Assembly: GCA_046756605.1 (NCBI GenBank)
Contig: JBHHWQ010000001.1
Location: forward strand, 1-36,255
DNA: 36,255 nucleotides
Source of the DNA: Minisyncoccia bacterium
GTDB lineage: Bacteria; Patescibacteriota; Minisyncoccia; Phycocordibacterales; Phycocordibacteraceae
Reading direction: 5' to 3'
The notes under the pieces were generated by a model, which saw only the letters and a list, made by a program, of their open reading frames with translations, was not told the DNA's origin and made no database searches. Made by a program: the position numbers and the translations under genes. Positions 5,865 to 25,291 of this stretch are shown in pieces (positions within the stretch are counted from its first letter, which is position 1; every line of letters begins with the position of its first letter).

Positions 5865-6078
5865 ATATATAAAACTTCTTTATTTTTATACTCTGTGAAG
5901 TACGTGGAAAACTTTTAACACCTTTAATATGAAAGAGAAAAAAGAAATAATACTGTATACAACGTCGTGTAGAACTACTGTGTTTTGTGTTTGTAACATC
6001 ATATATTTTTTATCCACCATTCGTTCCACAGAACAACCTTCAGATTTTTCACAATACTTATACATATACATTCCACAA
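5865..6078. other. AT-rich dnaA-dnaN spacer, candidate oriC / DNA-unwinding region
   Basis: This is the lowest-GC stretch in the window by eye. It holds TTATCCACC (6010-6018, 1 mismatch) and weaker TCCACA-core boxes at 6022-6030, 6069-6077 and 5903-5911 (complement). Confidence 0.4.
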
Positions 6079-7425
6079 TTATTTCAACATACCACGCACT
6101 TCACTCACCTCACTCTTAAAATCATCATTTTGTGAAAGGTCGGTTTTTATCTTCTCACATGCATGAATAACGGTTGTATGATCTCGTCCGCCAAACACTG
6201 AACCAATTGCCGGATATGAAAGATGAAAATCTTCCCGTAGAATATACATAATAATCTGCCGTGGACGCACAATCTCACGCTTCCGCGTCTTAGCGTACAT
6301 CGACGCCTCATCAACACCGTAAAACTCAGCAACTTTTGCAATAATATTTTTAACCGAGACCGACCGCTTTGGTTTTGTTGTTGATTTAATTATTTCCCGC
6401 ACAACTTCATCGTTCAGCGCCCCCTTTAATTGTTGTTGGATGAGAATTGTATTCAACATTCCTTCTATTTCCCGTATATTTCCAGGAATAGTGAGTGAGA
6501 GTTGTTCAATAATACTATCCGAAAGGTCAAGTCCTACAGATACCGCCTTCTTCTTTATAATTGCCATCCTTGACTCATGGTCCGGCTCTTGGATAGCAAC
6601 CGTCATCCCCGATATAAACCTCGATTGAAGACGGTCGGTCAAATCAGGTATTAGGTTCGGATGCCGGTCGGAAGAACAAACAATCTGACGGTTCGCGTCA
6701 TGTAGTGTATTGAAAAGATGGAAAAATTCCTCCTGTAAGGTGCCTTTTTTTGAGAAAAACTGTATGTCGTCAACAATAAGGATGTCGTACGCTCGGTATT
6801 TTTCCTTAAATGTCGGGATAGTCCGGTTGTTTATCGCATTCATAAACTCAAACCCAAACCTCTCTGCGGTGAGATAATACACTTTTTTATGTGCAGATGT
6901 CTTTCTAATATGATTTCCAACACCCTGTATAAGATGGGTCTTTCCGCGGCCAGTTTCTCCGTACACAAAAAGTGGGTTGTACGCAATACCAGGATTTTTC
7001 GTTACAGCATTTGCGGCGGTGAACGCGAACTCATTAAACGCACCAACGACGAATGTGTCGAATGTATAACGCGGGTTTAGATTGTCTGAGCGATTCACAT
7101 AGTATTCAGCAAGCGGCAGTTCCGCACCTCTTTCGTCCGCTGAGACAACCTTCTCCGGTGTCTTCTTCGGCTCTTGTTTGGATACAATATATTCAACCCC
7201 CCGCACAGTGTCTACAAACCCACGCACGGTCTTTAGTATTAGTTTCCCGAACCGCTCCGAAAGCCACTCCTTGGTGAGTTGGTTAGGAACTCCGACATAC
7301 ACCACCCCCCCATCAATCTTGAGCACGTGGGTCTCTCCGAACCACATCTTGAAACTCGCGGGGGAAATGGAGAGCTCTATATTGGTAAGTGTGTTCTCCC
7401 AGAGTTGTTTCGTGTCGAGTTCCAT
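6079..7425 (-). CDS. dnaA: Chromosomal replication initiator DnaA
   Basis: 448 aa with AAA+ Walker A GETGRGKTHL, Walker B ILIVDDIQF and the C-terminal DNA-binding domain (PRQIIMYILRE...SYPAIGSVFGGRDHTTVIHA). Confidence 0.95.
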   Translation of the reverse strand: MELDTKQLWENTLTNIELSISPASFKMWFGETHVLKIDGGVVYVGVPNQLTKEWLSERFGKLILKTVRGFVDTVRGVEYIVSKQEPKKTPEKVVSADERGAELPLAEYYVNRSDNLNPRYTFDTFVVGAFNEFAFTAANAVTKNPGIAYNPLFVYGETGRGKTHLIQGVGNHIRKTSAHKKVYYLTAERFGFEFMNAINNRTIPTFKEKYRAYDILIVDDIQFFSKKGTLQEEFFHLFNTLHDANRQIVCSSDRHPNLIPDLTDRLQSRFISGMTVAIQEPDHESRMAIIKKKAVSVGLDLSDSIIEQLSLTIPGNIREIEGMLNTILIQQQLKGALNDEVVREIIKSTTKPKRSVSVKNIIAKVAEFYGVDEASMYAKTRKREIVRPRQIIMYILREDFHLSYPAIGSVFGGRDHTTVIHACEKIKTDLSQNDDFKSEVSEVRGMLK

Positions 7426-8074: not shown

Positions 8075-8815
8075 ATGGTTGCGATTTTCAACACATTCAT
8101 ACACGACCCCATCTACAACGCGTTGGCGTTCCTTGTGGACATTATTCCCAGTGGTGATGTCGGTATCGCCATAATACTCCTGACGCTCGCGGTCAAATTA
8201 ATTCTCTTCCCACTCTCACTCAAAGCAGTTCGAACACAGGCCGCGATGCGCGAAATCGACCCGGAACTCAAGCGCATCCGCGAAGAACATAAAAATAACC
8301 GCGAGGAATCCGCACGCCAGACCATGGCGCTCTTGAAGGAGAAGAAAGTAAACCCACTTGCAAGCGTCTTCCTCGTTCTTATACAACTTCCAGTCATCAT
8401 AGGCCTCTACTTCGTCTTCTTTAATGGCGGGAACGGTATCAATTTTTCAGAAACACTACTATATTCGTTCGTTCCATTCCCCACCGACGCTTCGTTCACA
8501 TTTCTCGGATTCATCGACCTCACAGGAAGAAGTGTGTCGCTTTCTATACTCGTCGCTCTTACCCAGTTCGTAAACGCTCGCATTATGCAGTTACCGGCGC
8601 CTTCTGGAGAGGCCGGAACACTCTCACATGACCTCGGGAAAAGTATGCAGATGCAAATGAAATACGTCTTCCCCATCGTGATGGGGGTCATCGCCTACAT
8701 CATCTCCGCGGCAATCGCACTCTATTTCTTGGTGTCGAACCTCTTCCAGCTTTTCCAGGAGCTCTACGTCAAACGAACGGCCGCTCAGGCATCAGCTCAA
8801 AACACCTCCTCTTGA
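8075..8815 (+). CDS. yidC: Membrane protein insertase YidC (short, Oxa1-like form)
   Basis: 246 aa polytopic protein in the canonical rnpA-yidC position. It has the conserved TM1 region AIILLTLAVKLILFPLSLK followed by the charged coiled loop (MREIDPELKRIREEHKNN). Confidence 0.85.
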   Translation: MVAIFNTFIHDPIYNALAFLVDIIPSGDVGIAIILLTLAVKLILFPLSLKAVRTQAAMREIDPELKRIREEHKNNREESARQTMALLKEKKVNPLASVFLVLIQLPVIIGLYFVFFNGGNGINFSETLLYSFVPFPTDASFTFLGFIDLTGRSVSLSILVALTQFVNARIMQLPAPSGEAGTLSHDLGKSMQMQMKYVFPIVMGVIAYIISAAIALYFLVSNLFQLFQELYVKRTAAQASAQNTSS

Positions 8816-10020
8816 AGCCGCAAAGACCAGAGCGAAAGATCTTTCTTGTTTAAAAAACCGACGTATGCGCCACTTTCGCTCACAAACGGCCTCCACGCGT
8901 CAATAGCCACTCCCACATCCTCGTCTGGGAGCGCAAGCAGGGTCGCGGTGCCGCGCTCCGGCTCGACAAGCCATATATCATCATCAAAAGAAACCGTCCC
9001 TCTGAGCCAGTCGTCCGGATACGCGCCTTCAGGGAATTCTTGCGGCACGCCGCAGACCGCACGTACCGGCGACTCGGAAAGGAATACACACTTGCTTGCG
9101 AGCGTCCCGAGCGGACTCGCGCTTTCCTCGCCGGTTTCGGTATCGAGAAGTATGAGTGCCGGCTCTCCACTTGCAGGGCCAGTGCTTAAAAGCACATATC
9201 GGCCGCTCGGAGAGACGAGCGCCATCATTCCCGGCACGTCGCCCGCGACCCGTCGTAACGCTCCACTGACAACTCGATACAGGAATCCGGGGATTCCGGA
9301 AGACGGTGCCGTATATACATAAAGATTATCATCGCTCTGGAGTGGGATCCATGAGACGACAGGAGAAGAAAGGACCCTCCGTGCACCGGAGCCGTCGGAA
9401 CCCGAAAGCACGACAGAGGAGCCGTCCACACCCTCGTTTACCGTAAGGAGGTTTTCTCCGGCGGCATCCAATACCCCCCGCTCCCATCCGGCGAGGAACG
9501 AACCGGAGAGCGACTGTTCAGCAGTATCACCTTCGAGCGTCGCGTAGAAGTTCTCCCACGCGCCGTCTTTGTCGAGTGAGCGGATGATGAACGCGTCCTT
9601 GTTTGCAAACAACACCTCTTGGATGCCGGGAATAGTGGTGTTCGAGATACGGACGACACTGCGCCCCTCGGCCGGTGTGTCGTACACGTGGCCAGTCCTG
9701 CGTTCGATGAAGCGAATGACCGTTTCGTCCGCTTCGTTTTCATAGAAGAAGCCGCCTGATGACGGCGTCTCCGTCACCTGCCGTAAGTCGGGAACCGGGC
9801 GAGTGTCGACTAACTCGTCTCCAGAATCACCTGGCCCGCCTTCTGCCGGCACACGGTCTCCACCGCCGGAGTTGAACGGGAACAAAGAACCAAATAGCCC
9901 TTGGTTGCCGCCGGTGTCCCCCTGTGGCTCGCTAGTGCCGGGCACGAACACAAACACGAAGAACGCGACGATGGCGACCAAGATGAGTGCGATAAAAGAA
10001 AGGATGAATGTCCGTTGCAT
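8797..10020 (-). CDS. Hypothetical N-terminally membrane-anchored extracytoplasmic protein, beta-rich (possibly propeller-like)
   Basis: 407 aa with an N-terminal TM (FILSFIALILVAIVAFFVFVFV) and a G/P-rich linker. It has SP(S/D)GRYVLLS-type strands reminiscent of PD40/TolB-like repeats. It is the last gene of the T4SS-like operon and overlaps the yidC 3' end by 19 nt (convergent). Confidence 0.7.
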   Translation of the reverse strand: MQRTFILSFIALILVAIVAFFVFVFVPGTSEPQGDTGGNQGLFGSLFPFNSGGGDRVPAEGGPGDSGDELVDTRPVPDLRQVTETPSSGGFFYENEADETVIRFIERRTGHVYDTPAEGRSVVRISNTTIPGIQEVLFANKDAFIIRSLDKDGAWENFYATLEGDTAEQSLSGSFLAGWERGVLDAAGENLLTVNEGVDGSSVVLSGSDGSGARRVLSSPVVSWIPLQSDDNLYVYTAPSSGIPGFLYRVVSGALRRVAGDVPGMMALVSPSGRYVLLSTGPASGEPALILLDTETGEESASPLGTLASKCVFLSESPVRAVCGVPQEFPEGAYPDDWLRGTVSFDDDIWLVEPERGTATLLALPDEDVGVAIDAWRPFVSESGAYVGFLNKKDLSLWSLRLQEEVF

Positions 10021-10023
10021 ATA

Positions 10024-10989
10024 TCAGAAAGTAAGGAGAAAGTTTTGTGTTGCTCGCTCGAACAGAAGCTGGGCGTGTTCAAGCGCAAAGGCGACGTAGA
10101 AGCGACCGCCCCCCTCTCCTTCACGCCGGAGCGTGAGCTCACGCACCGTCCGTCCGGTTTCCTCTACCGGGTTGCCGTCGATGCTCCAGGCGTAGTCGGG
10201 TCCGGAAAGGTCGTTCACGAAGAACGGGTGCGCGACGAAGGTTATCTCGTCCTCGGCAAGCCGGACCTCGTCTCCAACACCGCGCTCGGTGCGGAGCCCG
10301 AAGAGTGGCGCGCGTTCGTACACCGCGATCACCGGCCGCACCGGCTCGACGGTCACGTTGTTTTCGGCACGCACCGCACCGTCCGTGGTTTCAACGACAA
10401 CCGAGACCGTGAATGGATTCTCAAACTGCGGCGTCGTGAGTGTTATCGTCCGGAGTCCGTAGCCGAAGTGTTCGGGTGTGGCGGAATGGTTCACATACCA
10501 GCTATACACAAGGTTGGCCGGCGGCACCCGTACACCACCTTGTATGATTTCCGGCACGGCTGTAAATGTCGCCGTGCCTGAGCCGTTCATGAGCGGACGC
10601 CCCAGGTACCACGGCGGAACGTACGTATCGCCCTCCCAGACGATATCGACCGAAGCGGGACGGATGGTCACAGAATCTTCTGCCGAGACGCCGTTTCCGG
10701 AGACCGAAACAGACACCGTTGTTGCCGAGCCGGCGTTTCCCACACCGGCGGTTATCGCTTCCACCCCGACACCCTGGTCGACCACCGCGCCGTTCACCCG
10801 CCAGACAAACATTGCCCCACCGGCCGCGGACACATTTTCAGCGCGCACGGTAACCGTGCTCCCCGGCGCGGGATTTGCCGGAATCACACGGAGAGTGAGC
10901 GCGGTTTCCAGAACCGGTATCTCTACCGCGAGTGCGGATACCGGAGAGAGAACAAGTAGTATGGCAAGCACCCCTTTCAGCATAGTCAT
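10024..10989 (-). CDS. Hypothetical secreted beta-rich protein
   Basis: 321 aa with a signal peptide (MTMLKGVLAILLVLSPVSALA/VE). The composition is V/T/G-rich and Ig-like. It lies 3 nt from the next gene and 11 nt after the VirB4-like gene. Confidence 0.7.
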   Translation of the reverse strand: MTMLKGVLAILLVLSPVSALAVEIPVLETALTLRVIPANPAPGSTVTVRAENVSAAGGAMFVWRVNGAVVDQGVGVEAITAGVGNAGSATTVSVSVSGNGVSAEDSVTIRPASVDIVWEGDTYVPPWYLGRPLMNGSGTATFTAVPEIIQGGVRVPPANLVYSWYVNHSATPEHFGYGLRTITLTTPQFENPFTVSVVVETTDGAVRAENNVTVEPVRPVIAVYERAPLFGLRTERGVGDEVRLAEDEITFVAHPFFVNDLSGPDYAWSIDGNPVEETGRTVRELTLRREGEGGGRFYVAFALEHAQLLFERATQNFLLTF

Positions 10990-11000
10990 AGTATACCGGC

Positions 11001-12815
11001 TTATCCGGCGCCTCCTTCGCGGGCCTGTTCCTTGATGGCGAGAATCTGTGACGGGTCGGACGTGATGATCTGGTCTTCGGTATACGACGCGATAACCTTG
11101 ATGGCGACATGCTTCAGGCCTGCAAAGAAGATGCCCTCGCCGATGTCGGACTCGAGGAGCAGGAACTTTTCCTCGTCGGTCAGGTTAAATGTTTTCTGTA
11201 CGTTGTCGATGACGGAAGGCGACTGCTTGAGGAGGAGCTGTATTGAGGAGTTCGAGATCATCGGCAGGCCGTAGGGGCTCTTCAGGAAGTCGTCCACGTC
11301 CTGCGTGATGGTGGCGAGTCCCAGGAAATACTTCCTGCCGCGCTTCGCCATACCATAGAGGAATGACGCCGTGTCTTCCGCCTTCATCATCCACCACGCC
11401 TCATCGATGATGAGGAGGCGTTTCTTAAGCTCCCGCCGGACCGCGTTCCAGATGTAGTGGGTAACGATATACATGGCGACGGGCTTCAGCTCGTCTTCCA
11501 TGTCGCGCACAGAGAATGCCACGAACTTTTTATTGATATCCACATTGGTCGGGCGGTTGATGAAGCCGGCCCACGTCCCCTTCGTGTACTTGCTCAAGCG
11601 CTGGACCAGGGATTCCGAACCCTCCATACCAGAGAGAACCAGCTCGAAGTCAGACAGCAAGGGCGGCTCCATGTTCGTAAAATCTGCCTCGCCGGTGATG
11701 TCCTTCAAGGCGTACGTTTCTGTGATAGCCCGATCGATGATGGCGTCTTCCTCAGGCGTGAGGCCTCCGAGCATGATGCGGAACAAGCCCACCAAGGTTA
11801 CGATGTTGCCGCGAAGGACATCCGACGGCGACTCGTCCTCGCGCGGCGGCGGCAGGTCGAACGGGTTGATGTGGTGCTCGCTTGAGAGAGAGATGGAGAA
11901 AAACCTGCCGCCGACCGCGTTCGCCAGGTACTCGTACTCGTTCTCCGGGTCGATAACGATGACTTCCGTGTCAAACATCAGCGAGCGGAGTATCTCAAGT
12001 TTGGTCGCGTAGCTCTTACCGGAGCCGGACTTGGCGAATGTGACGGAGTTGTAGTTTTCAAGCGAAAAGCGGTCGAAGAGTATGAGTGAAGCATTGTGCC
12101 GGTTGATGCCGTAGAGGATGCCGCGGTCTGAGGTAAGGTCGAATGAGATAAACGGAAAAAGCGACGAGAGGGGCGAGGAGTTTAGTTTTGAGTGGACACC
12201 TAAGAGGTCTTTACCCGTCGGGATGACGCTCTTGAACCCCTGCTCCTGCTGGAACAGCGCCGGCTTCACATAAACGAGCTTCGCGTCGAGGATTGACCGT
12301 ATCTCGGCCTCGGCCTTGTCGAGTTCATCCGAGTCGTCGCCGTAGACGGTGATGTAGAGCCCCACATCGAAGATGCGCTCCTGCGCTTGCTGGAGCTTGT
12401 CGCGGAGCTCTTCAATGTCGCGATAGGCGGTGTCGAGAACTGGGTCGCGCACGAGCCCCTTCTCCTCGCGTGCGATGACCTGGCTCTGGACCTCCGCTAC
12501 CTTCTTCTGGAACTTGCGAAGGACCGCTGCGGTGTCGATAGGATGCACGTAAATCGCGACATCGAACACCTTGTCCAGGTTGATAATTGGCGAAAACCAT
12601 GAATCAGAGAGGAAGCGCGGATAGGAGATGACGTAGAAGGTGCGCGCGAGCTTATCGCCCAAGTTCATCTCCCGCGGCGTGATTTTTAGCGCCGACGGCG
12701 CGATGATGTCGGCAAAGTCAAGTTTTGCCGCCTCGTAAATATCCTTCGGCAGGAACGGTGTGAGCTCTGCCTCTGTCTCTTTTTTTCTGCCGCGTATGAA
12801 ATCCAAAAACGCCAT
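11001..12815 (-). CDS. VirB4/TrbE/PrgJ-type type IV secretion ATPase (ATPase-containing portion)
   Basis: 604 aa with Walker A FAKSGSGKSY and Walker B RLLIIDEAWWMM. The N-terminal pattern (ARTFYVISYPRFLSDSWFSPIINL...IYVHPID) is typical of Gram-positive VirB4 homologs. Confidence 0.85.
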   Translation of the reverse strand: MAFLDFIRGRKKETEAELTPFLPKDIYEAAKLDFADIIAPSALKITPREMNLGDKLARTFYVISYPRFLSDSWFSPIINLDKVFDVAIYVHPIDTAAVLRKFQKKVAEVQSQVIAREEKGLVRDPVLDTAYRDIEELRDKLQQAQERIFDVGLYITVYGDDSDELDKAEAEIRSILDAKLVYVKPALFQQEQGFKSVIPTGKDLLGVHSKLNSSPLSSLFPFISFDLTSDRGILYGINRHNASLILFDRFSLENYNSVTFAKSGSGKSYATKLEILRSLMFDTEVIVIDPENEYEYLANAVGGRFFSISLSSEHHINPFDLPPPREDESPSDVLRGNIVTLVGLFRIMLGGLTPEEDAIIDRAITETYALKDITGEADFTNMEPPLLSDFELVLSGMEGSESLVQRLSKYTKGTWAGFINRPTNVDINKKFVAFSVRDMEDELKPVAMYIVTHYIWNAVRRELKKRLLIIDEAWWMMKAEDTASFLYGMAKRGRKYFLGLATITQDVDDFLKSPYGLPMISNSSIQLLLKQSPSVIDNVQKTFNLTDEEKFLLLESDIGEGIFFAGLKHVAIKVIASYTEDQIITSDPSQILAIKEQAREGGAG

Positions 12816-12816
12816 A

Positions 12817-13470
12817 CTATTGTTGATTATCGAGTGTTATCGGCTTCTCAAGCTCCCCCGGGTTGAATTCCTTGTAGAGAAGCTCGATAACTTCTTCCGT
12901 CCCCAACGGCACGGTGCGGACCCCGGTGCGCACGAGCCCCTGCTCAACCACAGCCATCCTTTGCTCAAGTTGGGTGCGGTACTCCTCAAACCCCACATCC
13001 TCCTGCTCCGCTGAGAGTTCGCTCTTCCCCAGGAAGCGTGACGCGAGCGATTTCTTCACATCAAATATCGGTGTTGAGTATGGAACGACCACGAAAAAGT
13101 TTTTCGACATGATGTTCGCGCGCTCGGTCACGGAGCGGACAAACTCGATGTATTCTCTGATCTGGACCTTCATAAGCTCGTCTGTCTGCGCTGTGAGGCG
13201 CTCTTCAAGGAGCGCCACATACGGGCGGATGTCCAAGCGGCGCGACTGCACGAAGAACTGCACCGAGAAGTCGAGCGAGTTAAGGAAGTTCTGGAACTGC
13301 GCGAGGATGGCCTGCTGTTCGTCCTGCGACTTCAAGGCGAAGTTGATACTTGAGGCGAGCATGACGCCCACCAGCGTGTCATCCTTGAGGACGATGACAC
13401 CGCCGCGCACCTCTTTAATGGGAACGAAATCCTGTGCGGCTCTGGTCTTTTCTGTCTTCTTTTCGGCCAT
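12817..13470 (-). CDS. Hypothetical protein resembling the extreme N-terminal segment of Gram-positive VirB4-family proteins
   Basis: 217 aa with no TM and no P-loop. The pattern FVPIKEVRGGVIVLKDDTLVGVMLASSINFALKSQDEQQAILAQFQNFLNSLDFSVQFFVQSRRLD matches, from memory, the start of ~800-aa VirB4/TraE proteins. Its TAG stop lies 1 nt from the ATG of the ATPase gene. Confidence 0.5.
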   Translation of the reverse strand: MAEKKTEKTRAAQDFVPIKEVRGGVIVLKDDTLVGVMLASSINFALKSQDEQQAILAQFQNFLNSLDFSVQFFVQSRRLDIRPYVALLEERLTAQTDELMKVQIREYIEFVRSVTERANIMSKNFFVVVPYSTPIFDVKKSLASRFLGKSELSAEQEDVGFEEYRTQLEQRMAVVEQGLVRTGVRTVPLGTEEVIELLYKEFNPGELEKPITLDNQQ

Positions 13471-13473
13471 GCA

Positions 13474-13905
13474 CTACTTCTGGTTTCTGTCCGAGTAGAT
13501 GGACTCCTTGATGTCCAAACTCCACGCCAGGTCCTTAAGGCGCGAGGCGGTCGCGGCCGGCACATACTTCGCCGGGTCCTCTTTTTCTTTGGCGGATTTC
13601 TGCTCGACCGGTCCTGGTTTAGCGGTGCGCGCCTTGTCCCAGATATAGAGGCGGTTGCGCATGCGATACTCAAGCGCCGCCTGCAAAACCTCGATAAACG
13701 GCCGGTCGTTCACCTTGTAGAAAGCGAGCCCCGCGCCGAGGAGCGCCACCGGTCCGCCGAGGATGACGGCGGCCCAGAGCGGGATAAGAATGGCGAGCGC
13801 AACGAAGAACCCCACGCCGCCGGCGAGATACACGAACTGCGTAACCGTCAACGGACCGAATATCTTGTCTTCAACTTCAATAAACTGCGGCACTTGGAAG
13901 CGCAT
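13474..13905 (-). CDS. PrgI-family (VirB3-like) small membrane protein
   Basis: 143 aa. The N-terminus VPQFIEVEDKIFGPLTVTQFVYLAGG is followed by two TM helices, which is the PrgI-family signature. It sits immediately upstream of the VirB4-like genes. Confidence 0.6.
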   Translation of the reverse strand: MRFQVPQFIEVEDKIFGPLTVTQFVYLAGGVGFFVALAILIPLWAAVILGGPVALLGAGLAFYKVNDRPFIEVLQAALEYRMRNRLYIWDKARTAKPGPVEQKSAKEKEDPAKYVPAATASRLKDLAWSLDIKESIYSDRNQK

Positions 13906-13906
13906 A

Positions 13907-13927
13907 CGCTAGACGCTAGGCGCTAGG
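13907..13927. repeat. Three tandem heptamers CGCTAGA-CGCTAGG-CGCTAGG
   Basis: Read directly from the sequence. It begins 2 nt upstream of the PrgI-like start codon (13905) and is followed by the CTAGGCACTAG repeat. Confidence 0.7.
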
Positions 13928-13930
13928 AAA

Positions 13931-14285
13931 CTAGGCACTAGCTCTCCCAATCATAACATTCAACATGCGCATCACTTCTTCCAATAACGACTCGACCGCG
14001 CCGTAATCGAGCTAAGTTGTTTCTGGCAATCGTTTTGCGATTTCTATTTGGGTCTCTAATTCCCCACCGGAACCAAAGGTGATTCGCAGAAAGCGGGTGA
14101 ATTTCTTGTTAGAGCTCCGCAACTTCCCATCGGCTATGTTTGACGGAATCGAAACCGCCGCATGCCGCATTTGTGAAACCAAACTGAAGCGTTCACTATC
14201 GGGGAATTTTTCAGTCAACACATATACTGCTGTGCTTAGTTCGGATAGACCGTTGCCACACGATTAGATTCTTGTAGTTCTCCAT
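13931..14285 (-). pseudogene. Decayed four-helix-bundle protein gene (23S rRNA intervening-sequence protein family)
   Basis: Hand translation gives MENYKNLIVWQRSI / ELSTAVYVLTEKFPDSERFSLVSQMRHAAVSIPSNIADGKLRSSNKKFTRFLRITFGSGGELETQIEIAKRLPETT * LDYGAVESLLEEVMRMLNVMIGRASA. That requires skipping one extra C near 14243 and reading through an in-frame TAG at 14012-14014. The SIPSNIA(E/D)G and G(S)xxELETQ motifs are the family hallmarks. Confidence 0.75.
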
Positions 14286-14317
14286 GGCTAGCCACTAGTA
14301 GCCCATCTCCCAGCTCC

Positions 14318-14962
14318 CTATTCTAGTGGTTCTCTATACGGGTCAACGCCTGAGCGGTACGGCGCGCCCTGCAACGGCGATTTCTTTTCCGCGTCGTCGT
14401 CGAACGCATCAACCGACACCTGCTCGGGTTTCTCGTTTGTCTTTTTCTCAAGCGCCGCGGCAGGAGCGGGCGGAACCGCCGCGGGCTCTTCCGACGGCCT
14501 TGTTTTTTCTGGCGTAACCGGCGCGCTTGGGGGTGCGGCTGGAACAATTGGCGGCTCTTGTGGCGGCTCTTGTGGTGTGGGTTTCGGCACCGGAGTAGCG
14601 GGAGTGCCCGACGGCGCAGGCGGTGCGGCAGAAGAAGGCGCGGTATCTTTCCCCGCGAGCTTTTGCCTGAAGACCTTGAAAATCTTTTCGTTCACGTCTT
14701 TCAAAACTGCGTCGTATTTGTCGCTATTTTGTTCGAGCGCTTCGCGAAGGAGTTCCGGGAACTCTGAAGCAGAACGCAACTCAAAGAAAACGGATACTAA
14801 AGCGTCAGTCAGTTTGTCAGCTTCATCAAAATGCAATTTATGTGCTTCCCGAATCTGCTCGAAAACTTCATTTAATTCATTAGAAGTAATGTACGACTGC
14901 ACCTGTGTCGGACCGCGGTTATACGCCTCTTGAATGTCTTGTTTCGTTGGGATTGTTATCAT
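14318..14962 (-). CDS. Hypothetical protein with helical N-domain and proline-rich C-terminal half
   Basis: 214 aa with no TM. The C-terminal half is P/A/E-rich (APPAPSGTPATPVPKPTPQEPPQEPPIVPAAPP) and ends in DPYREPLE. It lies within the T4SS-like operon. Confidence 0.7.
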   Translation of the reverse strand: MITIPTKQDIQEAYNRGPTQVQSYITSNELNEVFEQIREAHKLHFDEADKLTDALVSVFFELRSASEFPELLREALEQNSDKYDAVLKDVNEKIFKVFRQKLAGKDTAPSSAAPPAPSGTPATPVPKPTPQEPPQEPPIVPAAPPSAPVTPEKTRPSEEPAAVPPAPAAALEKKTNEKPEQVSVDAFDDDAEKKSPLQGAPYRSGVDPYREPLE

Positions 14963-14989
14963 ACCTATCTATTGCGCTTAATCCTTTTA

Positions 14990-17167
14990 TTAAGGCCTTG
15001 GCGGGCGGTCTTCGGGGCGAGCAACGAGCGGCGAATCTTCATCACCACCCTCATCTTCATCACCACCCTCATCTTCATCCGTGCCGGACTCTGTTCTCGC
15101 ATCTTCTACCATGTTCCCACGAACGGGACGCCCGTATCGGCCTGGGCCTGAAAGGAAGCGCTTCCTGACGCTCCGCGGTGCGGCACGAACGACCTGTTGA
15201 TATTGATCAAAAGTATAATTCTCTGTATCTCGTCCAACGTCAACAAGGTCTTGTACGGTGATTAATTTTTTTATATTCGGGCTCAGGAGTATGTCCATCG
15301 GAAGTTTCGCAAGTGAAACACCCATGCGCCTCAACTCGCCGACGAATTGCTCAGCGCTTCGTCTGTCCCGCACTGCATGCCGTGCACGCTGGTTGAACTC
15401 GCGGTTATCGCGAAGCGCTTCACGCGAATCGGCCGCCCTCACTTCATTCGCAAGACGCTTTACGTCGCCCTTGGTCGCGGCTCCAGAGCCACTTCCCGCA
15501 CCGCCCACACGCTTTTGTTTGTGGGAGATTCTTCCCGCACCGCGCGCGCCTTTCTTTATCTCATCAAGCATTTCTTCGGGAAGCGCGTCTTTAACCACTT
15601 CACGCTGTTTCGCGTTCATACCATTCCAGCGCCGGGCACGCTCCTTCTTCGACATGGTTTCAAACTCACCCTTCAAGTCACTGCGGCCATCCCTAGATGT
15701 TTTGGGGTCGTCGCTTTCAGCCCGACTGATTGCATCGTTGACGCGATTCGTCCTCCTTTCCTCCGCAGAGAGCGGTGCCACACCGAACAGGTGCTGTACG
15801 CCACGCACTGTTGCGCGCGTTCCGACAACCACACCTCCACCAATCTCACCCGGCGCTTCACGCACCACCTGTCGAGCGCCCCTAAAGAGCAGGTTTCGCG
15901 GGTAGAGCTGTCGCGCCACGAACTTTCTGATTGGCACCCCTGCCTCAAAGAGCGCGCCCGGCGATGGCGGCGTGAAATCCTTCTGCTGGGCTATGTTGGT
16001 CGCGATTTTCAAGGACAGGAACAGCAGTATCCACGAGATGCCGTATACCATGACCAAGTTCAGGTTTGTGTACCATGTCAATAGGTCGTCGGGGCTCGAT
16101 ATGATGCCGGAGAGCACTCCGCGGCCGCCCTGGACGGATTCGAGAAAGCCGACCTCCATGATTTTGAACGCAATTCCCACCATCACGAGGAAAGCGATGG
16201 GAAAGAGCGCTTGTGCAATCAAAGTGTCCCACCATGCCTTGCCCCACTTCACGAGCTTGGGAATGTTGACGAAGTAAAGCATGCCGATAGGAGAGAGGAT
16301 GAGGAGGATGAGGATGATAACAAACCGTATGAGAAGGAACACTGCCGCCGCCGCGAAGATGCCGGCGGTGAGCGAGAACATCGTGACGCCGAAGAACGCC
16401 AGAATGTACGGAAGGTATTGGTTTTCTGCGAACCGCCCACCGGGCGCGAAGTCGCTCGTTGATATGTCGTAAAGCGAAGTCAGGCGGGTAACCGCCATGA
16501 AGCGCTCTGATACGGGCGCTGACGCGCCGGAGGCACCGAAGTCGAGCGACAGAATGTTATTCGGATTCAATCTTCCAAGTTCCAAACTCTCGCCTGTGTA
16601 TATCGCCTCTTCATATATCTTCGTCGAGACGAAGTTTGACGCGTCAACGATAACTCCGGCGAAGAAGTAACTGAAATTAATGAGAAGCGCCGCGATGATG
16701 ATGCGCACAATCAATTTCCCCACCTGCCCTTCGTTGATGCGAAGGATAAGGGCGATTGCGGCGTATACGAGGGCGCCTATGAAGACCAGGTTGATGAGGT
16801 CGCGGATAACGGTCCAGCCGATCTTGATGCCGTTTGCGAGCGGTGAGCCCCTGCCGAGCAGTTCGCCCATGTAGGTAACTGACAAGAGGAGTGTGTAGTC
16901 GAAAAGCGTACCGACAAACCCGAGGAACCAGCCGGCAATGTGAAGGCCGAATGTCATGAACGTGATGGAGCAGGCGCGGATTACCCCCGGCTGGCCATCG
17001 CTTCCTCGGACCGAATTGATAACATCACCGAGGTTGAGCTCTTGGAAACATCCGCCGATTCCGCCGACGATTGCGAAGAGGAGAACAACGGCAGAAATCG
17101 ATGTTACGACCGTCCCGACACTCATCTTCGGTGATTTGTTGCCCGTGTCTTGCTGTTCTTCCGCCAT
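14990..17167 (-). CDS. Polytopic membrane protein, VirB6/TrbL/ConG-like by size, topology and context, with ~290-aa charged cytoplasmic tail
   Basis: 725 aa with about 8 predicted TM segments in the first ~430 aa, then an R/K/E/D-rich tail ending in DEDEGGDEDEGGDED. The VirB6 call rests on topology and neighbourhood only. Confidence 0.5.
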   Translation of the reverse strand: MAEEQQDTGNKSPKMSVGTVVTSISAVVLLFAIVGGIGGCFQELNLGDVINSVRGSDGQPGVIRACSITFMTFGLHIAGWFLGFVGTLFDYTLLLSVTYMGELLGRGSPLANGIKIGWTVIRDLINLVFIGALVYAAIALILRINEGQVGKLIVRIIIAALLINFSYFFAGVIVDASNFVSTKIYEEAIYTGESLELGRLNPNNILSLDFGASGASAPVSERFMAVTRLTSLYDISTSDFAPGGRFAENQYLPYILAFFGVTMFSLTAGIFAAAAVFLLIRFVIILILLILSPIGMLYFVNIPKLVKWGKAWWDTLIAQALFPIAFLVMVGIAFKIMEVGFLESVQGGRGVLSGIISSPDDLLTWYTNLNLVMVYGISWILLFLSLKIATNIAQQKDFTPPSPGALFEAGVPIRKFVARQLYPRNLLFRGARQVVREAPGEIGGGVVVGTRATVRGVQHLFGVAPLSAEERRTNRVNDAISRAESDDPKTSRDGRSDLKGEFETMSKKERARRWNGMNAKQREVVKDALPEEMLDEIKKGARGAGRISHKQKRVGGAGSGSGAATKGDVKRLANEVRAADSREALRDNREFNQRARHAVRDRRSAEQFVGELRRMGVSLAKLPMDILLSPNIKKLITVQDLVDVGRDTENYTFDQYQQVVRAAPRSVRKRFLSGPGRYGRPVRGNMVEDARTESGTDEDEGGDEDEGGDEDSPLVARPEDRPPRP
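15037..15079. repeat. Perfect 18-bp tandem repeat (2.4 copies) inside the VirB6-like gene
   Basis: cttcatcaccaccctcat occurs twice, plus a partial third copy cttcatc. On the minus strand it is in frame and encodes the DEDEGG repeats. Confidence 0.9.
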
Positions 17168-17173
17168 ATGTTT

Positions 17174-18652
17174 TTACCGAGCCGTGCCTTGGCACTGTGC
17201 CAGAAGGTCGGGGTTGTTCTGCACCGCGGCAAGCGCCGCAGCGTCGTTCTCGAGCGCCGTCGTGTCCACCACAGTGTGGACGGTTTGTGCGGCAAGGGCG
17301 GCGCGATACGCGTCGTCCGCCGCGTTCGTGCTCTCGACCGAGAGAGCACGCGCCGCCTGGTCGCGGACGCTCTCAAGCACCTCGACCGCCGCGCGCGACG
17401 CGTCAAGCTCGCTTTCTATGAATGCACTTCGCTCTGCAATGGTTCCACTGGCATTCAGTTTGCCGGCAGTGTCAAGAAAACAGCTATACACTGCGTCGTC
17501 AGCGAGGTTGAGCGCGGAGAGGTTCGCCTTGAGCGCCGCTTGGTACGCCTCTTCCTGGTCGAGCGAACGCTCCACCTGGAAGAGGAGTGCATCCTTGGCG
17601 CTCGTGACGGTCGAGCGGTTTGTCTCGCCTGCGAGCGACTCGACGTACGAACCCTGTACCAGCCGCCCGCTTGCGTCCACGTACGTACGTGCGGATGCGC
17701 TGGAGCGGCTCGAGAGTCCGCGCACGCCGTCGATTGAGGTGAGCGCTTGTTGCGCGAGCTGGGCGATTAGTGCGTTCACAATCTCGTTTATCTCGTCGGC
17801 GAGCTGAAGTTGTTCAAAACCGGAACCCAGGACCCGTGAAAGCTGGTCGTTTATCTGCGCACCTGGGGTTACGATCTCGTACACGGCGCACCGCTCTTCA
17901 GTTGTCGCCACACCCGAAATATGCGGACTTACCGGCACCTGTTCGTACTGCACACAGTTCCGCTTTGAGAAGAAGCCCTCGCCGAACCGGAGGTACTGCG
18001 TTTCCTCGTACTGGCGGCTGGCGATGCGCGCCCGAAGCTCGCCCGCCGCCAGAGTATACGCGCCGTACGGCGTGTTCTGGATGTCGGTGTGGAGCCGGAA
18101 CCACGCGGGCCAGCCGCCTTGCGAGAAGTCGCCGGAGAGGAACCCGTCGATATTGTCCGTTACGTCCCCCAAGGTGCAAATGGAGCGTGTGTGGAACGGC
18201 TGTTGTTGGACGGCAAGTGCAAGCCGGACATCAAGCTGGAACGGACTGCAGATGAATCCGAGCGCCGGGTCGTTATAGATAAAGTCGAGCCGCGTCTCAT
18301 CGGCGATTTCGCCAAGGAAGCGCGGTAAGTTCGTGACGAACGAAGGCCCGCCCTCGAAGCCGTTGTTTATCCAGTCAACGATTGAATGGGTCATGGCGGC
18401 AATGAGCCCTTGGGTCAGCGCGAACGCCACGCCGTCCAGTATCGTTTCCTTCGCTACGAGTTTCGCCGTACTCACCGCGACCACGCCGGTGTGTGCGGCG
18501 GTATCGGCGATCATGCCCTGCACCGGACCGACTTCAGCGACCGGCTGCGGTGTCACGCCAAAGAGCGCGTGCACGGTGTTTGGCGCACTGCCGAACAGCC
18601 CAATGCCGATGAGCAGGACGGTGAATATTCTTGTTACAAAAGCGTTTCTCAT
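17174..18652 (-). CDS. Hypothetical secreted protein with alanine-rich, probably coiled-coil C-terminal third
   Basis: 492 aa with an N-terminal signal/TM (IFTVLLIGIGLFGSAPNTVHA). The central Cys-containing domain is not recognised. It has a 4-nt overlap with the upstream gene and sits 6 nt from the VirB6-like gene. Confidence 0.75.
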   Translation of the reverse strand: MRNAFVTRIFTVLLIGIGLFGSAPNTVHALFGVTPQPVAEVGPVQGMIADTAAHTGVVAVSTAKLVAKETILDGVAFALTQGLIAAMTHSIVDWINNGFEGGPSFVTNLPRFLGEIADETRLDFIYNDPALGFICSPFQLDVRLALAVQQQPFHTRSICTLGDVTDNIDGFLSGDFSQGGWPAWFRLHTDIQNTPYGAYTLAAGELRARIASRQYEETQYLRFGEGFFSKRNCVQYEQVPVSPHISGVATTEERCAVYEIVTPGAQINDQLSRVLGSGFEQLQLADEINEIVNALIAQLAQQALTSIDGVRGLSSRSSASARTYVDASGRLVQGSYVESLAGETNRSTVTSAKDALLFQVERSLDQEEAYQAALKANLSALNLADDAVYSCFLDTAGKLNASGTIAERSAFIESELDASRAAVEVLESVRDQAARALSVESTNAADDAYRAALAAQTVHTVVDTTALENDAAALAAVQNNPDLLAQCQGTAR

Positions 18653-19578
18653 GGCGTTTGCTGCGGGGTAAGCGCATCAAAGTCTGCGTACGCGTCGCCG
18701 AACCTGTCTTCGGAGGCAACAAAAAGGTTCACTGCAAAGAGCATCTCGTACGGGTCGCGATACCCATTTCCCAGCGCCTCGACCGCGTACGCGGCGTCCA
18801 CGAGCGCGTTCACGAGCGTGATATGGACGCTCGCGCGTGCCGCCGGCACAGTTATCGAAAGCAGCTCGTCCGCAATGCTGCGATAGATATCGGCGTTGTC
18901 GAGCAAGATGCCTGCGTACGAAAGGTCGCTCGTCTCGAGGAGCGTGTAGACGGTCTTGAGTTCGTATTCCGGCACGGCGTTTGCACGCGCAATCGCCCGG
19001 TCCACCTGCGCACGGTACGCGGCAATTGCCGATGCGCTGTCGTCAGGCGTGACGGTGAGGTCGGCAACACCGTAGTGCTTTGCCGTGCCGCCTTCCTCGG
19101 TGCGGCGCGCCACAATATCATCAACAGATTCCAAAATCGCCGTCTCATCGAGGGACCCGCCTTCTTTTAGTGCGAGGTATGCGGCGAACACCTCGCGGCC
19201 CAAGGCGTCGCTCGGCGCGAGAATGTTCGGCGCGACGTACGCTGGCGCGTTTTCCGCCGACGTGCTGGTGAACGCAGCAGCACCGGCATTCTGTGCCACC
19301 CATTCGCCATCCGGCACGCCGTCTCCGTCGGTGTCCGGACTGGACGGATCCAAACCAAGGAGCGTTTCCTTCCAATCCGGCACACCATCACCATCCGAGT
19401 CGGTCTCAGCGCTACGGCTTGTCGATGCGGCCGCCTCGGAAGAGAGCGCGACAACCTCCGACCGTGCATTTTCAGCCGATTCACGCTCGTCGGAAATGGT
19501 CATAAAAGCGACCGCGACTGCACCGAACGCAACCGCGCCGGATACCAAGAGAATCCCGAAAACATTTCGGTCAGGCAT
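18649..19578 (-). CDS. Hypothetical membrane-anchored protein with thrombospondin-type-3-like calcium-binding repeats
   Basis: The ATG at 19578 gives MPDRNVFGILLVSGAVAFGAVAVAFM (TM). The track ORF extends to a GTG at 19617. Two DxDxDG repeats are present (DSDGDGVPDW, DTDGDGVPDG). This is the first gene of the T4SS-like operon. Confidence 0.7.
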   Translation of the reverse strand: MPDRNVFGILLVSGAVAFGAVAVAFMTISDERESAENARSEVVALSSEAAASTSRSAETDSDGDGVPDWKETLLGLDPSSPDTDGDGVPDGEWVAQNAGAAAFTSTSAENAPAYVAPNILAPSDALGREVFAAYLALKEGGSLDETAILESVDDIVARRTEEGGTAKHYGVADLTVTPDDSASAIAAYRAQVDRAIARANAVPEYELKTVYTLLETSDLSYAGILLDNADIYRSIADELLSITVPAARASVHITLVNALVDAAYAVEALGNGYRDPYEMLFAVNLFVASEDRFGDAYADFDALTPQQTP

Positions 19579-19638
19579 TGCTTTCAGTATAGCGTGCACA
19601 AAAGCCCCTACCCCCACATTCTGGATATGAGCTGTAGA

Positions 19639-20466
19639 TTATGCCGCCTCGCGGGATTGCAATGATTCCGCGAGTGAAAACCATGTTTCAAGCGGCACGT
19701 CTTCGGCGCGGACATCGTCCGCAAGTCCGGTTTTTACGAACCCCCGCTCTACCGCGGCGCTTTCGAATCTGCCGGAACGTTTCAGGTTCCCTTTTAAGGT
19801 TTTCCGCTTTTGCCCGAAGCCGATGCGGATGAGCCCGAAAAAAGAATCTTCACTTACCGAGCTGAAGTGCCGGCGCGAAATATCTGAAATAGAAAGGATG
19901 GCCGAGTCGACTTTCGGAGGCGGATTAAAACTCCCGGCCTTTACCGTGCGGACGTAGCGCGGCATTCCGTACGCTTTTACAGAAAGCGACAGAAGCGATT
20001 CTTTTTTCGAGCGGACAATCCGTTCCGCGACCTCTCTCTGCACAAGAAGCGCGACTGCTTCCGGCTGTGGGCGCGCGGTAAGAAAGAGACGCAGCAGTTC
20101 GCCGGTAATGTAGTACGGGATGTTCGCGACGACTTTGTAAGTTGCAAGGGAAAAGGAAAAAGGAGAAAGAAGTTCGCGCGCGTCACCTTCGACAAGCGCG
20201 AGCGTTCCTGTTTCGATTTCGCGCGGGAACATCCCGCGAAGCGCCGCGAGCATCTCCTGGTCTTTCTCGACAGCAACCACCCGCACGCCTTTCAAAAGAA
20301 GTTCGCGCGTCAGCATGCCCGTGCCCGGTCCGATCTCGAGTACAGTATCTCCCTTTTGTGCGTCCGCAGCCACCGCCACCTGCCGGGCTACATCGCCGGA
20401 TGTCAGAAGGTGTTGGCCAAGCTTCGGCGCCGCACGCCGCCTAAAGAATGATGGCATCCTCTGCAT
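19639..20466 (-). CDS. rsmA: 16S rRNA (adenine1518/1519-N6)-dimethyltransferase
   Basis: Motifs KLGQHLL, SAM-binding VLEIGPGTGMLT and NIPYYIT are present. The start is placed at MQRMPSFF (ATG 20466, or 20457), because the track ORF's further N-terminal extension runs into pcrA. Confidence 0.85.
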   Translation of the reverse strand: MQRMPSFFRRRAAPKLGQHLLTSGDVARQVAVAADAQKGDTVLEIGPGTGMLTRELLLKGVRVVAVEKDQEMLAALRGMFPREIETGTLALVEGDARELLSPFSFSLATYKVVANIPYYITGELLRLFLTARPQPEAVALLVQREVAERIVRSKKESLLSLSVKAYGMPRYVRTVKAGSFNPPPKVDSAILSISDISRRHFSSVSEDSFFGLIRIGFGQKRKTLKGNLKRSGRFESAAVERGFVKTGLADDVRAEDVPLETWFSLAESLQSREAA

Positions 20467-24268: not shown

Positions 24269-25291
24269 GTGATACAGAACAACCATTATCTCACCACCGC
24301 AGTACTCTCGGTGCTCTTTTTGGTAACCACTCTCGGTCCGCTTTCCGCGGGCGCCTTTTCGTTCGTGCGCCTTTTCGGGTCACTTTCGGCCGGAAGCGAG
24401 CCGGCGCCCGTGCTCCACTCGTCGAGCGGCACACCAGCGCTCAGGGCTGCGCTCAATGTCGACCCGAACCCCGCCAAGGGCGGCGGCGACATAGCAATCG
24501 TCGGGGGCGTAGCGCTTTCCGCCGAGAGCGGCCCATCAGGCACCTTGGCGGATATCGAGGTTGCGCGCCCCGGGGCCGACGAGATTTCTATATACGTTGT
24601 TCGCGAGGGCGACACCATATCCCAAATTGCCGAACTCTTCGGCGTTTCCACCAATACGGTTGTCTGGGCGAACGACCTGCGCGGCACGACCATCCACCCC
24701 GGGCAGACGCTCGCCATCCTTCCGGTCTCGGGCATCACGCATACGGTCGCGAAAGGCGATACACTCGCGTCCATTACGAAAAAGTATGAAGGCGACCTCG
24801 CGGAGGTCCTCGAATTCAACGGCCTTGTAGAGGGCGCGTCGCTTGCAGTGGGTGAAACCATAGTGGTTCCGTACGGCGTGGTGCCGCAGGCGGTCGGCAC
24901 GATATCGACGACAGCGGTAGCGCGGGGCACGGGCGGGCCCTACCTCGAAGGATATTTCCTTCGCCCGGTCGTCGGCGGCTCAAAGACCCAGGGGCTTCAC
25001 GGCTACAACGGCGTCGACATTGGCGCGCCGACAGGCACGACGGTTCTGGCTTCCGCTTCCGGCGAGGTCATTATTTCTCGTACCGGCGGATACAACGGCG
25101 GCTACGGCCAGTACATCGTCATTCGCCACCCAAACGGAACCCAAACCCTCTACGGGCATCTCTCGCAAAACTATGTTTTTGCGGGCGATTACGTGGTGCA
25201 GGGCCAGGTTATCGGCGCCGTGGGAAACACCGGCCGCTCCACGGGGCCGCACGTGCATTTCGAGGTGCGCGGCGCGGCGAATCCGTTTTAA
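24269..25291 (+). CDS. Secreted LysM-domain M23 family metallopeptidase (peptidoglycan hydrolase)
   Basis: 340 aa with an N-terminal hydrophobic segment and two LysM repeats (YVVREGDTISQIAELFGVS..., HTVAKGDTLASITKKYEG...). M23 motifs HGYNGVDIGAP and GNTGRSTGPHVHFEV are present. GTG start. Confidence 0.9.
   Translation: MIQNNHYLTTAVLSVLFLVTTLGPLSAGAFSFVRLFGSLSAGSEPAPVLHSSSGTPALRAALNVDPNPAKGGGDIAIVGGVALSAESGPSGTLADIEVARPGADEISIYVVREGDTISQIAELFGVSTNTVVWANDLRGTTIHPGQTLAILPVSGITHTVAKGDTLASITKKYEGDLAEVLEFNGLVEGASLAVGETIVVPYGVVPQAVGTISTTAVARGTGGPYLEGYFLRPVVGGSKTQGLHGYNGVDIGAPTGTTVLASASGEVIISRTGGYNGGYGQYIVIRHPNGTQTLYGHLSQNYVFAGDYVVQGQVIGAVGNTGRSTGPHVHFEVRGAANPF

Follow-up and report, generated by a model that had tools for sequence, protein, structure and literature searches.

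The stretch of DNA analysed here (the window) is one entire contig of 36,255 bp, JBHHWQ010000001.1, from a metagenome-assembled genome (MAG) of Candidatus Paceibacteria; two genes of the contig carry the locus tags ACE5F4_00090 and ACE5F4_00100. Positions 8797–19617 are filled by nine intact, co-directional open reading frames (ORFs) on the minus strand, which are interpreted in the following as a type IV secretion system (T4SS). In reading direction these are g9 (18649–19617, 322 amino acids), g8 (17174–18652, 492 amino acids), g7 (14990–17167, 725 amino acids), g6 (14318–14962, 214 amino acids), a PrgI/VirB3-like gene (13474–13905, 143 amino acids), a TrsD-like gene (12817–13470, 217 amino acids), the C-terminal part of VirB4 (11001–12815, 604 amino acids), g2 (10024–10989, 321 amino acids) and g1 (8797–10020, 407 amino acids). 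The spacers in this order are -4, 6, 27, 412, 3, 1, 11 and 3 nt, and the coordinates of the genes, the spacers and the 412-nt gap given in the original prediction, which had been made from the sequence alone, were all confirmed. For comparison, contigs of one genome per GTDB species were scanned, which yielded 563 confirmed VirB4 relatives; 80 loci were retained and oriented with VirB4 on the plus strand, the cluster of the window lying on the minus strand.

Motor function can be assigned by a profile match. The 604-amino-acid protein reached 372 bits with NCBIfam NF045971 (VirB4-like conjugal transfer ATPase, CD1110 family; curated cutoff 325), its residues 25–571 aligning to profile positions 179–733, and also matched PF19044 at 3.8e-24. 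Walker A (AKSGSGKS) and Walker B (LLIIDEAW, residue 467) motifs are intact. By these profiles it is the C-terminal two thirds of a VirB4 ATPase and the predicted motor of the system. The missing portion is encoded next to it. The 217-amino-acid protein matched NF041427 TrsD at 1.6e-9 and aligns to positions 2–165 of the CD1110 VirB4 profile and 4–166 of TIGR00929, with all three scores under the curated cutoffs; its orthologues carry PF26593 (TraC-like) in precomputed annotation, and trsD was found in 80 of 80 loci with a median identity of 60%. Since the shorter protein matches the N-terminal part and the longer one the remainder of the same profile, VirB4 is split over two polypeptides. Two genes upstream of virB4 lies prgI, present in 78 of the 80 loci, the product of which has one long hydrophobic hairpin region (residues ~20–62) and matched PF12666 PrgI at 3e-9 (37.7 bits, cutoff 27).

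A fourth core protein is g7, which has at least six strong hydrophobic segments followed by a hydrophilic tail of 295 amino acids, 36% of them charged. Nine of 41 orthologues match PF04610 TrbL/VirB6 (best 1.9e-7), and W118, N164-F165-S166, D175, N178 and R281 are invariant. From its orthologues and its predicted topology, g7 is probably a TrbL-like polytopic membrane protein, an 'extended VirB6' as the term is used in PMC12857230. Some relatives contain a further gene for a polytopic membrane protein of ~200 amino acids between virB4 and g2, which is absent from the window. Already the original prediction had named a VirB4-type ATPase, a PrgI/VirB3-like protein, a VirB4-N-like protein of 217 amino acids and a VirB6-sized protein with a charged tail, and these identifications held, as did the two DxDxDG motifs of the 322-amino-acid protein and the propeller-like nature of the 407-amino-acid one, both discussed below. 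With a score over the curated cutoff, the ATPase belongs to the CD1110 family of VirB4 and not to FtsK/HerA. To call the components mostly unrecognisable was overstated, as five of the nine can be placed (VirB4, TrsD-like, PrgI, VirB6-like and the protein with thrombospondin type 3 (TSP3) repeats) and two more have a recognisable fold (TolB-like and immunoglobulin (Ig)-like).

Judged from these proteins, the cluster is a Patescibacteria-type T4SS that descended from the MPF-FATA conjugation class (MPF, mating-pair formation) of monoderm bacteria. Such systems have been described before. The T4SS cluster SEML1_0006-0019 of the saccharibacterium Southlakia epibionticum is essential in co-culture (Wang et al. 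2023, PMC10633639) and is the first T4SS proven essential to its own carrier bacterium (PMC12857230). It is closest to Gram-positive conjugative systems and has pilins, without a recognisable type IV coupling protein (T4CP) or relaxase (PMC10633639). In a phylum-wide survey (Quiñonero-Coronel et al. 2025, PMC12102498), VirB4 formed a monophyletic clade with ties to MPF-FATA. The commonest T4SS-associated component in the phylum is TrsD, and PrgI-type VirB3, VirB6 and VirB2-like pilins were found as well; in Paceibacteria, the T4SS lies near dnaA, dnaN, rnpA and ksgA (PMC12102498). As the window matches both descriptions (PMC10633639, PMC12102498), including the dnaA/ksgA context, the system is already known (described 2023–2025). 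Thus, the locus is real and important, and it is not a new system. What the present comparison adds are the TolB-like g1, the Ig-like g2, the modules of g8, a protein family with a C-terminal DPYRE peptide (g6), the absence of the pilin gene and a pseudogene in the gap. A 2024 review called the function of the Patescibacteria T4SS completely unknown, and effector delivery or uptake have been discussed as roles (PMC11665869, PMC12857230).

The genomic context points to an ancient, vertically inherited, origin-proximal chromosomal machine and not to a mobile element. The 80 loci all lie in MAGs of Patescibacteria/candidate phyla radiation (CPR), with VirB4 identities of 76–85%, whereas the nearest plasmid-borne VirB4 proteins, CD1110-family genes of Firmicutes and Actinobacteria, are only 31–35% identical. 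The order pcrA-ksgA-g9-g8-g7-g6-prgI-trsD-virB4-g2-(pilin)-g1, continued by yidC and rnpA, dnaA and dnaN, and pbp1A, was seen in nearly every one of the 80 loci with a long enough contig, and three independent metagenome contigs showed identical gene order. It is this fixed housekeeping neighbourhood, together with the high VirB4 identity within the clade as against that to plasmids, that argues for residency and vertical inheritance. The accessory genes are conserved along with the core: by tblastn at E<=1e-5, g2 was found in 76 of the 80 loci (always downstream of virB4), g1 in 66 (as the final gene before yidC), g7 in 62, g8 in 53 and g9 in 30 (always between ksgA and g8). The site is chromosomal and fixed beside dnaA in most of the 80 genomes, not on plasmids or integrative and conjugative elements (ICEs) with relaxase and T4CP. 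The proposal of a resident envelope machine of a cell-associated bacterium instead of a conjugative element is therefore supported, and it coincides with the published view (PMC10633639, PMC12102498, PMC11665869).

It has nevertheless to be considered whether the cluster is a mating pore for conjugation, with relaxase and T4CP encoded elsewhere or too divergent to be recognised. VirB4 belongs to a conjugative family, its nearest relatives outside the CPR are on conjugative plasmids, and 2,888 of 4,073 matching plasmid records were typed conjugative. No relaxase, VirD4/TcpA-type T4CP or VirB11 was found by domain scans of the non-shadow ORFs of at least 140 amino acids in the 36-kb contig. The view is limited to this contig of the MAG, so that the earlier claim of a missing T4CP and relaxase stands for the contig and not as a statement on the genome. 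Distal VirD4 homologues are present in many Patescibacteria: thousands of VirD4/T4CP homologues occur in the phylum, mostly distant from virB4 (PMC12102498). Among 84 related loci, a single one (L006) has a T4CP-like gene (428–3196, minus strand, 923 amino acids, with matches to TraG-D_C, T4SS-DNA_transf and a HerA-type P-loop), which sits divergently between the DPYRE-tail gene and prgI; tblastn with its product gave no match in the window or in any other related locus. In the relatives, the ten largest, least explained ORFs of at least 300 amino acids were scanned, and apart from the gene of L006 neither a T4CP-like protein nor a relaxase was recognised among them. Relaxases are known from only 103 Patescibacteria genomes and are rarely near virB4, and in S. 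epibionticum a distal T4CP is non-essential while the T4SS is essential (PMC12102498). Such essentiality for growth would be unexpected for a conjugation apparatus. Furthermore, the oriC-adjacent position is fixed in most of the 80 species, and neither an integrase nor att-type boundaries were seen at the cluster, with no repeat search aimed at att sites made. The original prediction of no integrase anywhere in the window did not hold, as a tyrosine recombinase of the XerC/XerD/XerA type (~240 bits) is encoded at 32225–33154 on the plus strand. It is the sole recombinase on the contig, lies 12.6 kb from the cluster and has housekeeping neighbours (rpsO, a NYN-domain protein, PNPase, an exonuclease III-like protein and the CCA-adding enzyme). 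On balance, a role in conjugation is highly improbable.

The 412-nt gap between g6 and prgI (13906–14317) is explained by the remnant of an unrelated gene, which is not a part of the machine. At 14012–14285 on the minus strand lies a decayed gene for a four-helix-bundle protein (23S rRNA intervening-sequence protein): a 69-amino-acid ORF (14012–14221) matched TIGR02436 at 9.7e-21, and an upstream fragment of 24 amino acids (14211–14285) is in a different frame, as in a frameshifted gene. The remnant is 61% identical to an intact copy of 129 amino acids in locus L081, and intact copies are found at the g6/prgI and trsD/virB4 junctions of L081 and L082 (L081 8510–8872 and 10099–10488). Most loci have the g6-type gene directly beside prgI. 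Homologues occur in about 13–14 of 82 loci, and the gene seems to insert repeatedly within the T4SS cluster.

On the other side of virB4, a gene is missing. In 62 of 66 relatives, g2 and g1 flank a gene with a PF18895 T4SS_pilin domain, and two more relatives have it after g1. In the window, g2 and g1 are separated by 3 nt only (10020–10024). A VirB2-like pilin hidden elsewhere in the window was tried as a candidate and rejected, as tblastn gave no match at E<=10 and screening for transmembrane (TM) segments left no unassigned ORF with two of them anywhere. The pilin gene of this genome is thus either on another contig or lost. Among 1,948 virB4-carrying assemblies that have a pilin, only 1,135 have the pilin gene near virB4 (PMC12102498), so its absence here is compatible with membership in the Patescibacteria T4SS. 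Examples of pilin genes in the relatives are at L081 13953–14786, L083 15283–16416 and L030 13293–15032, the latter two being fusions of the pilin domain to a VanY carboxypeptidase (L083) and a Peptidase_S8 subtilase (L030), which suggests that a wall- or host-degrading activity is displayed on the pilin.

A pseudogene inside the cluster and a missing pilin gene might also be expected if the cluster were what is left of a decaying integrated conjugative element, now without function. The pseudogene, an insertion, is unrelated to the T4SS and no part of it. All nine ORFs and the catalytic motifs of VirB4 are intact, and gene order has been kept in dozens of species, with VirB4 identities of 76–85% and a TrsD identity of 60%. 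Of all explanations, this one is the least credible.

The remaining proteins of the cluster were studied by orthologue alignments built from the related loci, the profiles of which were searched against PDB sequences and Pfam. The g9 protein has one hydrophobic segment (residues 19–37), a probable N-terminal anchor, and putative calcium-binding repeats, DSDGDG at residue 73 and DTDGDG at residue 95. Eighteen of 29 orthologues match PF18884 TSP3_bac (best 2.8e-10), and the g9 profile found the calcium-binding region of the Bap surface protein (7c7u, 2.2e-6). By homology, these are genuine bacterial TSP3-type calcium-binding repeats. The C-terminal part is a helical, predicted extracellular domain of ~200 amino acids without fold assignment. 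In several relatives, a divergent gene pair absent from the window lies between ksgA and g9 (among others L063 2021–3474 and L080 1737–3209, minus strand). As read from the sequence, with no domain search, one of the pair encodes a protein of ~355 amino acids with a peptidoglycan-binding-like N-terminus and repeated beta domains and the other a secreted Cys-rich protein of ~126–130 amino acids.

In g8, a signal peptide or anchor is followed by a Cys-containing extracellular domain and a C-terminal helical bundle. Conserved columns are W93, N95, G97, F98, G100 and P102 as well as C134, C158, C232 and C254. An AlphaFold2 model from 69 sequences had a mean predicted local distance difference test (pLDDT) of 72.7, with more than 90 in the C-terminal bundle; searched against the PDB with Foldseek, it found nothing at E<0.1. 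Neither Pfam nor NCBIfam gave a match for the copy in the window. Matches from the PDB profile search were discarded as coiled-coil noise, and a lead to DUF4141 (a 53-amino-acid N-terminal model, near threshold and in few orthologues), a family probably linked to Bacteroidetes conjugative transposons, was not used as evidence. In orthologues, the C-terminus is swapped for or extended with Bact_surface_Ig-like, F5/8 type C (discoidin), Big_7 or SprB modules. Because these adhesin-type modules vary between orthologues, g8 is probably a surface-exposed or adhesive, host-facing part of the machine.

The two genes downstream of virB4 encode proteins with N-terminal hydrophobic segments, both at residues 6–24. 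The profile of g2 (41 orthologues) gave weak matches to Ig-type domains, namely T4 Hoc (3shs, 8e-4) and antigen-receptor domains, which weakly points to a secreted protein of Ig-like beta-sandwich repeats. That of g1, likewise from 41 orthologues, matched TolB (7mx5_A, 1.6e-7) and, more weakly, eleven other TolB chains. K310, C311, C323, W338, G341, D347, D374 and W398 are invariant in g1, C311 and C323 forming a Cys pair. The profile identifies g1 as a predicted membrane-anchored, extracellular TolB-like beta-propeller. This is a resemblance in fold and not membership in Tol-Pal: in contrast to TolB, g1 has an N-terminal TM anchor, belongs to a monoderm, is without the TolB N-terminal domain and has no tol or pal neighbours.

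Other than these, g6 is without a TM segment and is a predicted cytoplasmic protein. It consists of a six-helix N-terminal domain (residues 1–102; AlphaFold2 pLDDT above 90 over residues 1–100), a Pro-rich disordered linker of varying length and a C-terminus made of DPYRE plus two to four residues (three before the stop in the window). D207, P208, Y209 and E211 are invariant in the alignments and R210 is near-invariant, being H or K in few members. When DP[YF]RE was searched in six frames of the 80 loci and the window, 61 of 63 occurrences were C-terminal, and all 61 are in cluster reading direction, immediately upstream of prgI. With a relaxed tail motif, an ORF was found in 62 of the 68 loci with sufficient upstream sequence, mostly within 100 nt of prgI. 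The family is large: an exhaustive profile search of 1.84 billion representative sequences gave 6,245 members at E<=0.001, or 3,322 with the limit set at E<=1e-10. Many members have two or three head domains in tandem, and the tail was kept in 149 of 159 family sequences examined. Almost all stem from MAGs that are of Paceibacteria type or unclassified, two are labelled Acetobacteraceae and Thermodesulfobacteriota, and the named members are all 'hypothetical protein'. The head had no match among PDB structures (Foldseek, best E 0.9), the PDB profile search was empty, 16 members had no Pfam match, and a literature search on the DPYRE motif found nothing relevant.

FtsZ and SSB have conserved C-terminal peptides that dock on partners. 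By analogy, a head, a linker and a terminal peptide suggest a tether that might dock on a conserved partner, for which the assembly of VirB4, TrsD, PrgI and VirB6 is the most plausible candidate. The tail could instead be a C-terminal recognition signal. It is tentatively proposed, with considerable reservation, that g6 represents a large unannotated family in which DPYRE(P) would serve for docking or recognition in a T4SS without coupling protein, either by tethering the VirB4/TrsD motor to the translocon or by marking the protein, and whatever its head binds, for transport.

T4SS substrates are usually recognised via C-terminal signals, and on this basis g6 itself might be a substrate, or an adaptor that replaces the coupling protein, in a machine that exports effectors or toxins and thereby breaches or reprograms the host. 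Such a role would fit a protein without TM segment whose linker is disordered, whose C-terminal peptide is near-invariant and whose gene is kept in the cluster in 62 of 68 loci, and also the two or three tandem heads of some family members. As exporters that do without a T4CP, PMC12102498 cites Ptl of Bordetella and VirB of Brucella. Wang et al. lean towards export of proteins or some other role (PMC10633639), and in relatives the pilin domain is sometimes fused to a hydrolase (VanY in L083, subtilase in L030). However, no effector candidate with a recognisable toxic or enzymatic domain was found in the window; an acidic ORF of 527 amino acids upstream of the cluster has neither a homologue in the 80 loci nor a domain match. 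A fixed single copy with a fast-evolving body and a near-invariant tail is a better fit to a structural or adaptor subunit than to a substrate. Export of effectors is regarded as a doubtful explanation.

The reverse direction has been brought up as well, and uptake via the T4SS has been proposed (PMC11665869). As a more specific version of the host-contact machine preferred here, the T4SS might work in reverse and import host RNA or DNA into the nucleotide-auxotrophic cell, in the manner of ComB or Ced. These importers are likewise without T4CP and relaxase, as is the cluster. The C-terminal part of VirB4 has weak local matches to CedB (5.2e-7) and CedD; these are far under the cutoffs and reflect the common ATPase fold only. 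The non-ATPase parts of ComB and CedA had no match among the window proteins, and in Pfam and NCBIfam scans none of the nine proteins has a nucleic-acid-binding domain. In S. epibionticum, the T4SS is essential and comEC dispensable (PMC10633639, PMC12857230). Uptake of host RNA has been reported for a cultivated member of the phylum, which also forms tubes that are maybe T4SS pili; the preprint itself calls the mechanism unresolved (bioRxiv 10.64898/2026.06.21.733656). The presence of comM/yifB and PNPase genes on the same contig could also be taken as a hint, but these are housekeeping genes that are non-syntenic with the cluster (comM and pnp are each in one of 80 related loci), and comM, PNPase and the NYN RNase were rejected as cluster partners. 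Import is a possible role that we do not consider established. Import of host nucleic acids appears slightly likelier than export of effectors, due to the absence of a T4CP, the essential T4SS with dispensable comEC, a phylum without nucleotide synthesis and the RNA uptake reported in the preprint.

The best explanation overall, which we consider highly likely, is a resident T4SS of the Paceibacteria cell that was formerly of MPF-FATA type and forms a conduit at host contact, with the following proposed assembly. The split VirB4, made of the TrsD-like protein and the 604-amino-acid motor, would dock from the cytoplasm via PrgI/VirB3 and the extended VirB6-like g7 to give the translocon. On the outside, g9, g8, g2 and g1, together with a pilin in most relatives, would form the section that spans the wall and makes contact with the host, and the surface proteins with variable adhesin modules probably determine host contact. 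As an adaptor, g6 would most likely tether a partner to the ATPase or translocon by its DPYRE peptide, in the fashion of the FtsZ and SSB tails. At host contact, the machine could then act as a VirB4-powered conduit for macromolecules without coupling protein. The sequence comparison shows the identity of the core proteins, their residence in the chromosome, their conservation and the lack of relaxase and T4CP in the contig; the topology of the accessory proteins, the docking of DPYRE and the nature and direction of the cargo are in this scheme as we infer them.

Several points weigh against this explanation. The window copy of g7 has no Pfam or NCBIfam match. No VirB8-like part (PrgL/ConB/TcpC, NTF2-like) was matched in the nine proteins by Pfam, NCBIfam or PDB profiles, the fold-level comparison covering the g6 and g8 models only, and no peptidoglycan hydrolase of VirB1/PrgK/CwlT type is among the nine genes, the nearest LysM plus M23 gene being 4.6 kb off. 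The folds of g8 and g6 are without a structural homologue, and the roles given to them are guesses. As the pilin gene is either lost or on another contig, the pilus-dependent part may not apply. The genome may have a T4CP gene at another site, a common situation in this phylum. Finally, the locus is known here from sequence alone, and the present results fit either direction of transport.

Beyond the cluster, the same-direction run continues upstream of g9 with ksgA (19639–20544, minus strand), pcrA (20441–22384, minus strand) and the acidic 527-amino-acid ORF (22431–24014, minus strand), and therefore 19617 is not necessarily the operon edge. A scan for promoters and terminators at 8500–20700 found no more sites than in shuffled sequence and is thus silent on the operon limits. 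The 527-amino-acid ORF, directly upstream of pcrA and without TM segment, had no Pfam or NCBIfam match and is a strain-specific gene beside a highly conserved block. On the other flank, the cluster is convergent with yidC, followed by rnpA, dnaA, dnaN and pbp1A. In dnaN and dnaA (4764–7425), the GC content is 40.4% and 44.2%, respectively, and all remaining genes of the contig including the cluster are far above, at 54–62%. Hence, the statement that the GC content of the cluster equals that of its housekeeping neighbours has to be corrected for these two genes. Related loci show a milder dip (medians of 46% for VirB4, 42% for dnaA and 39% for dnaN). A chimeric assembly at the low-GC segment was considered and rejected, as its closest loci are L002–L004, the same as for VirB4 and pbp1A; the adjacency of the dnaA/dnaN segment was found again in 56 loci.

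On the plus strand at 24269–25291, in opposite orientation to the cluster, a secreted peptidoglycan endopeptidase with LysM and M23 domains is encoded (PF01551 1.1e-29, PF01476 1.3e-19). Its homologues lie just past pcrA in about eight relatives and abut prgI in L023 and L038. VirB1-like proteins with LysM/M23 have been reported, as have VirB1 homologues associated with virB4 in Paceibacteria (PMC12102498). It is possible that this protein opens the wall as a VirB1-analogous helper, and its association with the cluster is uncertain. In L023 (7519–9354) and L038 (85–1861), the LysM plus M23 gene takes the place next to prgI of the half with g9–g6, ksgA and pcrA, an arrangement which divides the cluster into two modules, g9-g8-g7-g6 and prgI-trsD-virB4-g2-pilin-g1. 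Of the genes further away, the comM/yifB ORF (25288–27024, minus strand) has a TTG start as listed, ~100 extra N-terminal residues and an overlap with the next gene, and its true start is probably further downstream; the adjacent YebC/PmpR-like ORF (26849–27388, minus strand) has 179 amino acids compared with a profile of ~240. Rfam and tRNA scans of the contig found a tRNA-Arg at the contig end and nothing else.

A large part of bacterial diversity belongs to the Patescibacteria, which live attached to hosts, without synthesis of nucleotides, lipids and most amino acids. The locus is a clean Paceibacteria example of their T4SS, and the comparison of more than 80 loci extends the parts list past the four recognisable core proteins to a candidate adaptor, the C-terminal peptide of which is near-invariant, and to surface proteins with variable adhesin modules. 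If true, the role suggested for DPYRE would be the first handle on substrate selection in the essential Patescibacteria T4SS.

Among known systems, Helicobacter pylori ComB, Bordetella Ptl, Brucella VirB and archaeal Ced are also chromosomal and non-conjugative and have no VirD4, and they provide precedents for both transport directions, ComB and Ced for DNA import and Ptl and VirB for protein export. ComB, Ptl and Brucella VirB differ from the window as diderm MPF-T systems with VirB7/9/10 cores, and Ced has unrelated membrane proteins; in sequence, the common ground of the window with any of the four is the VirB4/HerA-type ATPase fold only. The MPF-FATA systems (Prg of pCF10, Trs of pGO1, CTn2/CD1110 family of Clostridioides and Con of ICEBs1) are closer. 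They share the VirB4 family, PrgI, a TrsD-like protein and a polytopic VirB6-like protein, and they are without an outer-membrane core, which fits a monoderm envelope. In contrast to them, the window has a VirB4 that is 31–35% identical to the plasmid copies and split in two polypeptides, no recognised relaxase, T4CP, VirB8-like protein (PrgL/ConB) or PrgB-type adhesin, and a fixed chromosomal site with vertical inheritance instead of a plasmid or ICE. Closest of all are the T4SSs of the Patescibacteria clade. From these, the window differs in the absence of a VirB2-like pilin, a hallmark of the published systems, and five of its proteins (g9, g8, g6, g2 and g1) are lineage-specific and unnamed in the main text of PMC10633639 and PMC12102498. 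What it has in common with them is an MPF-FATA VirB4 whose TrsD-like partner is encoded separately, VirB3 of the PrgI type and a probable VirB6 homologue, a cluster without relaxase and T4CP, a LysM/M23 hydrolase nearby and, as in other Paceibacteria, a chromosomal site beside dnaA, dnaN, rnpA and ksgA.

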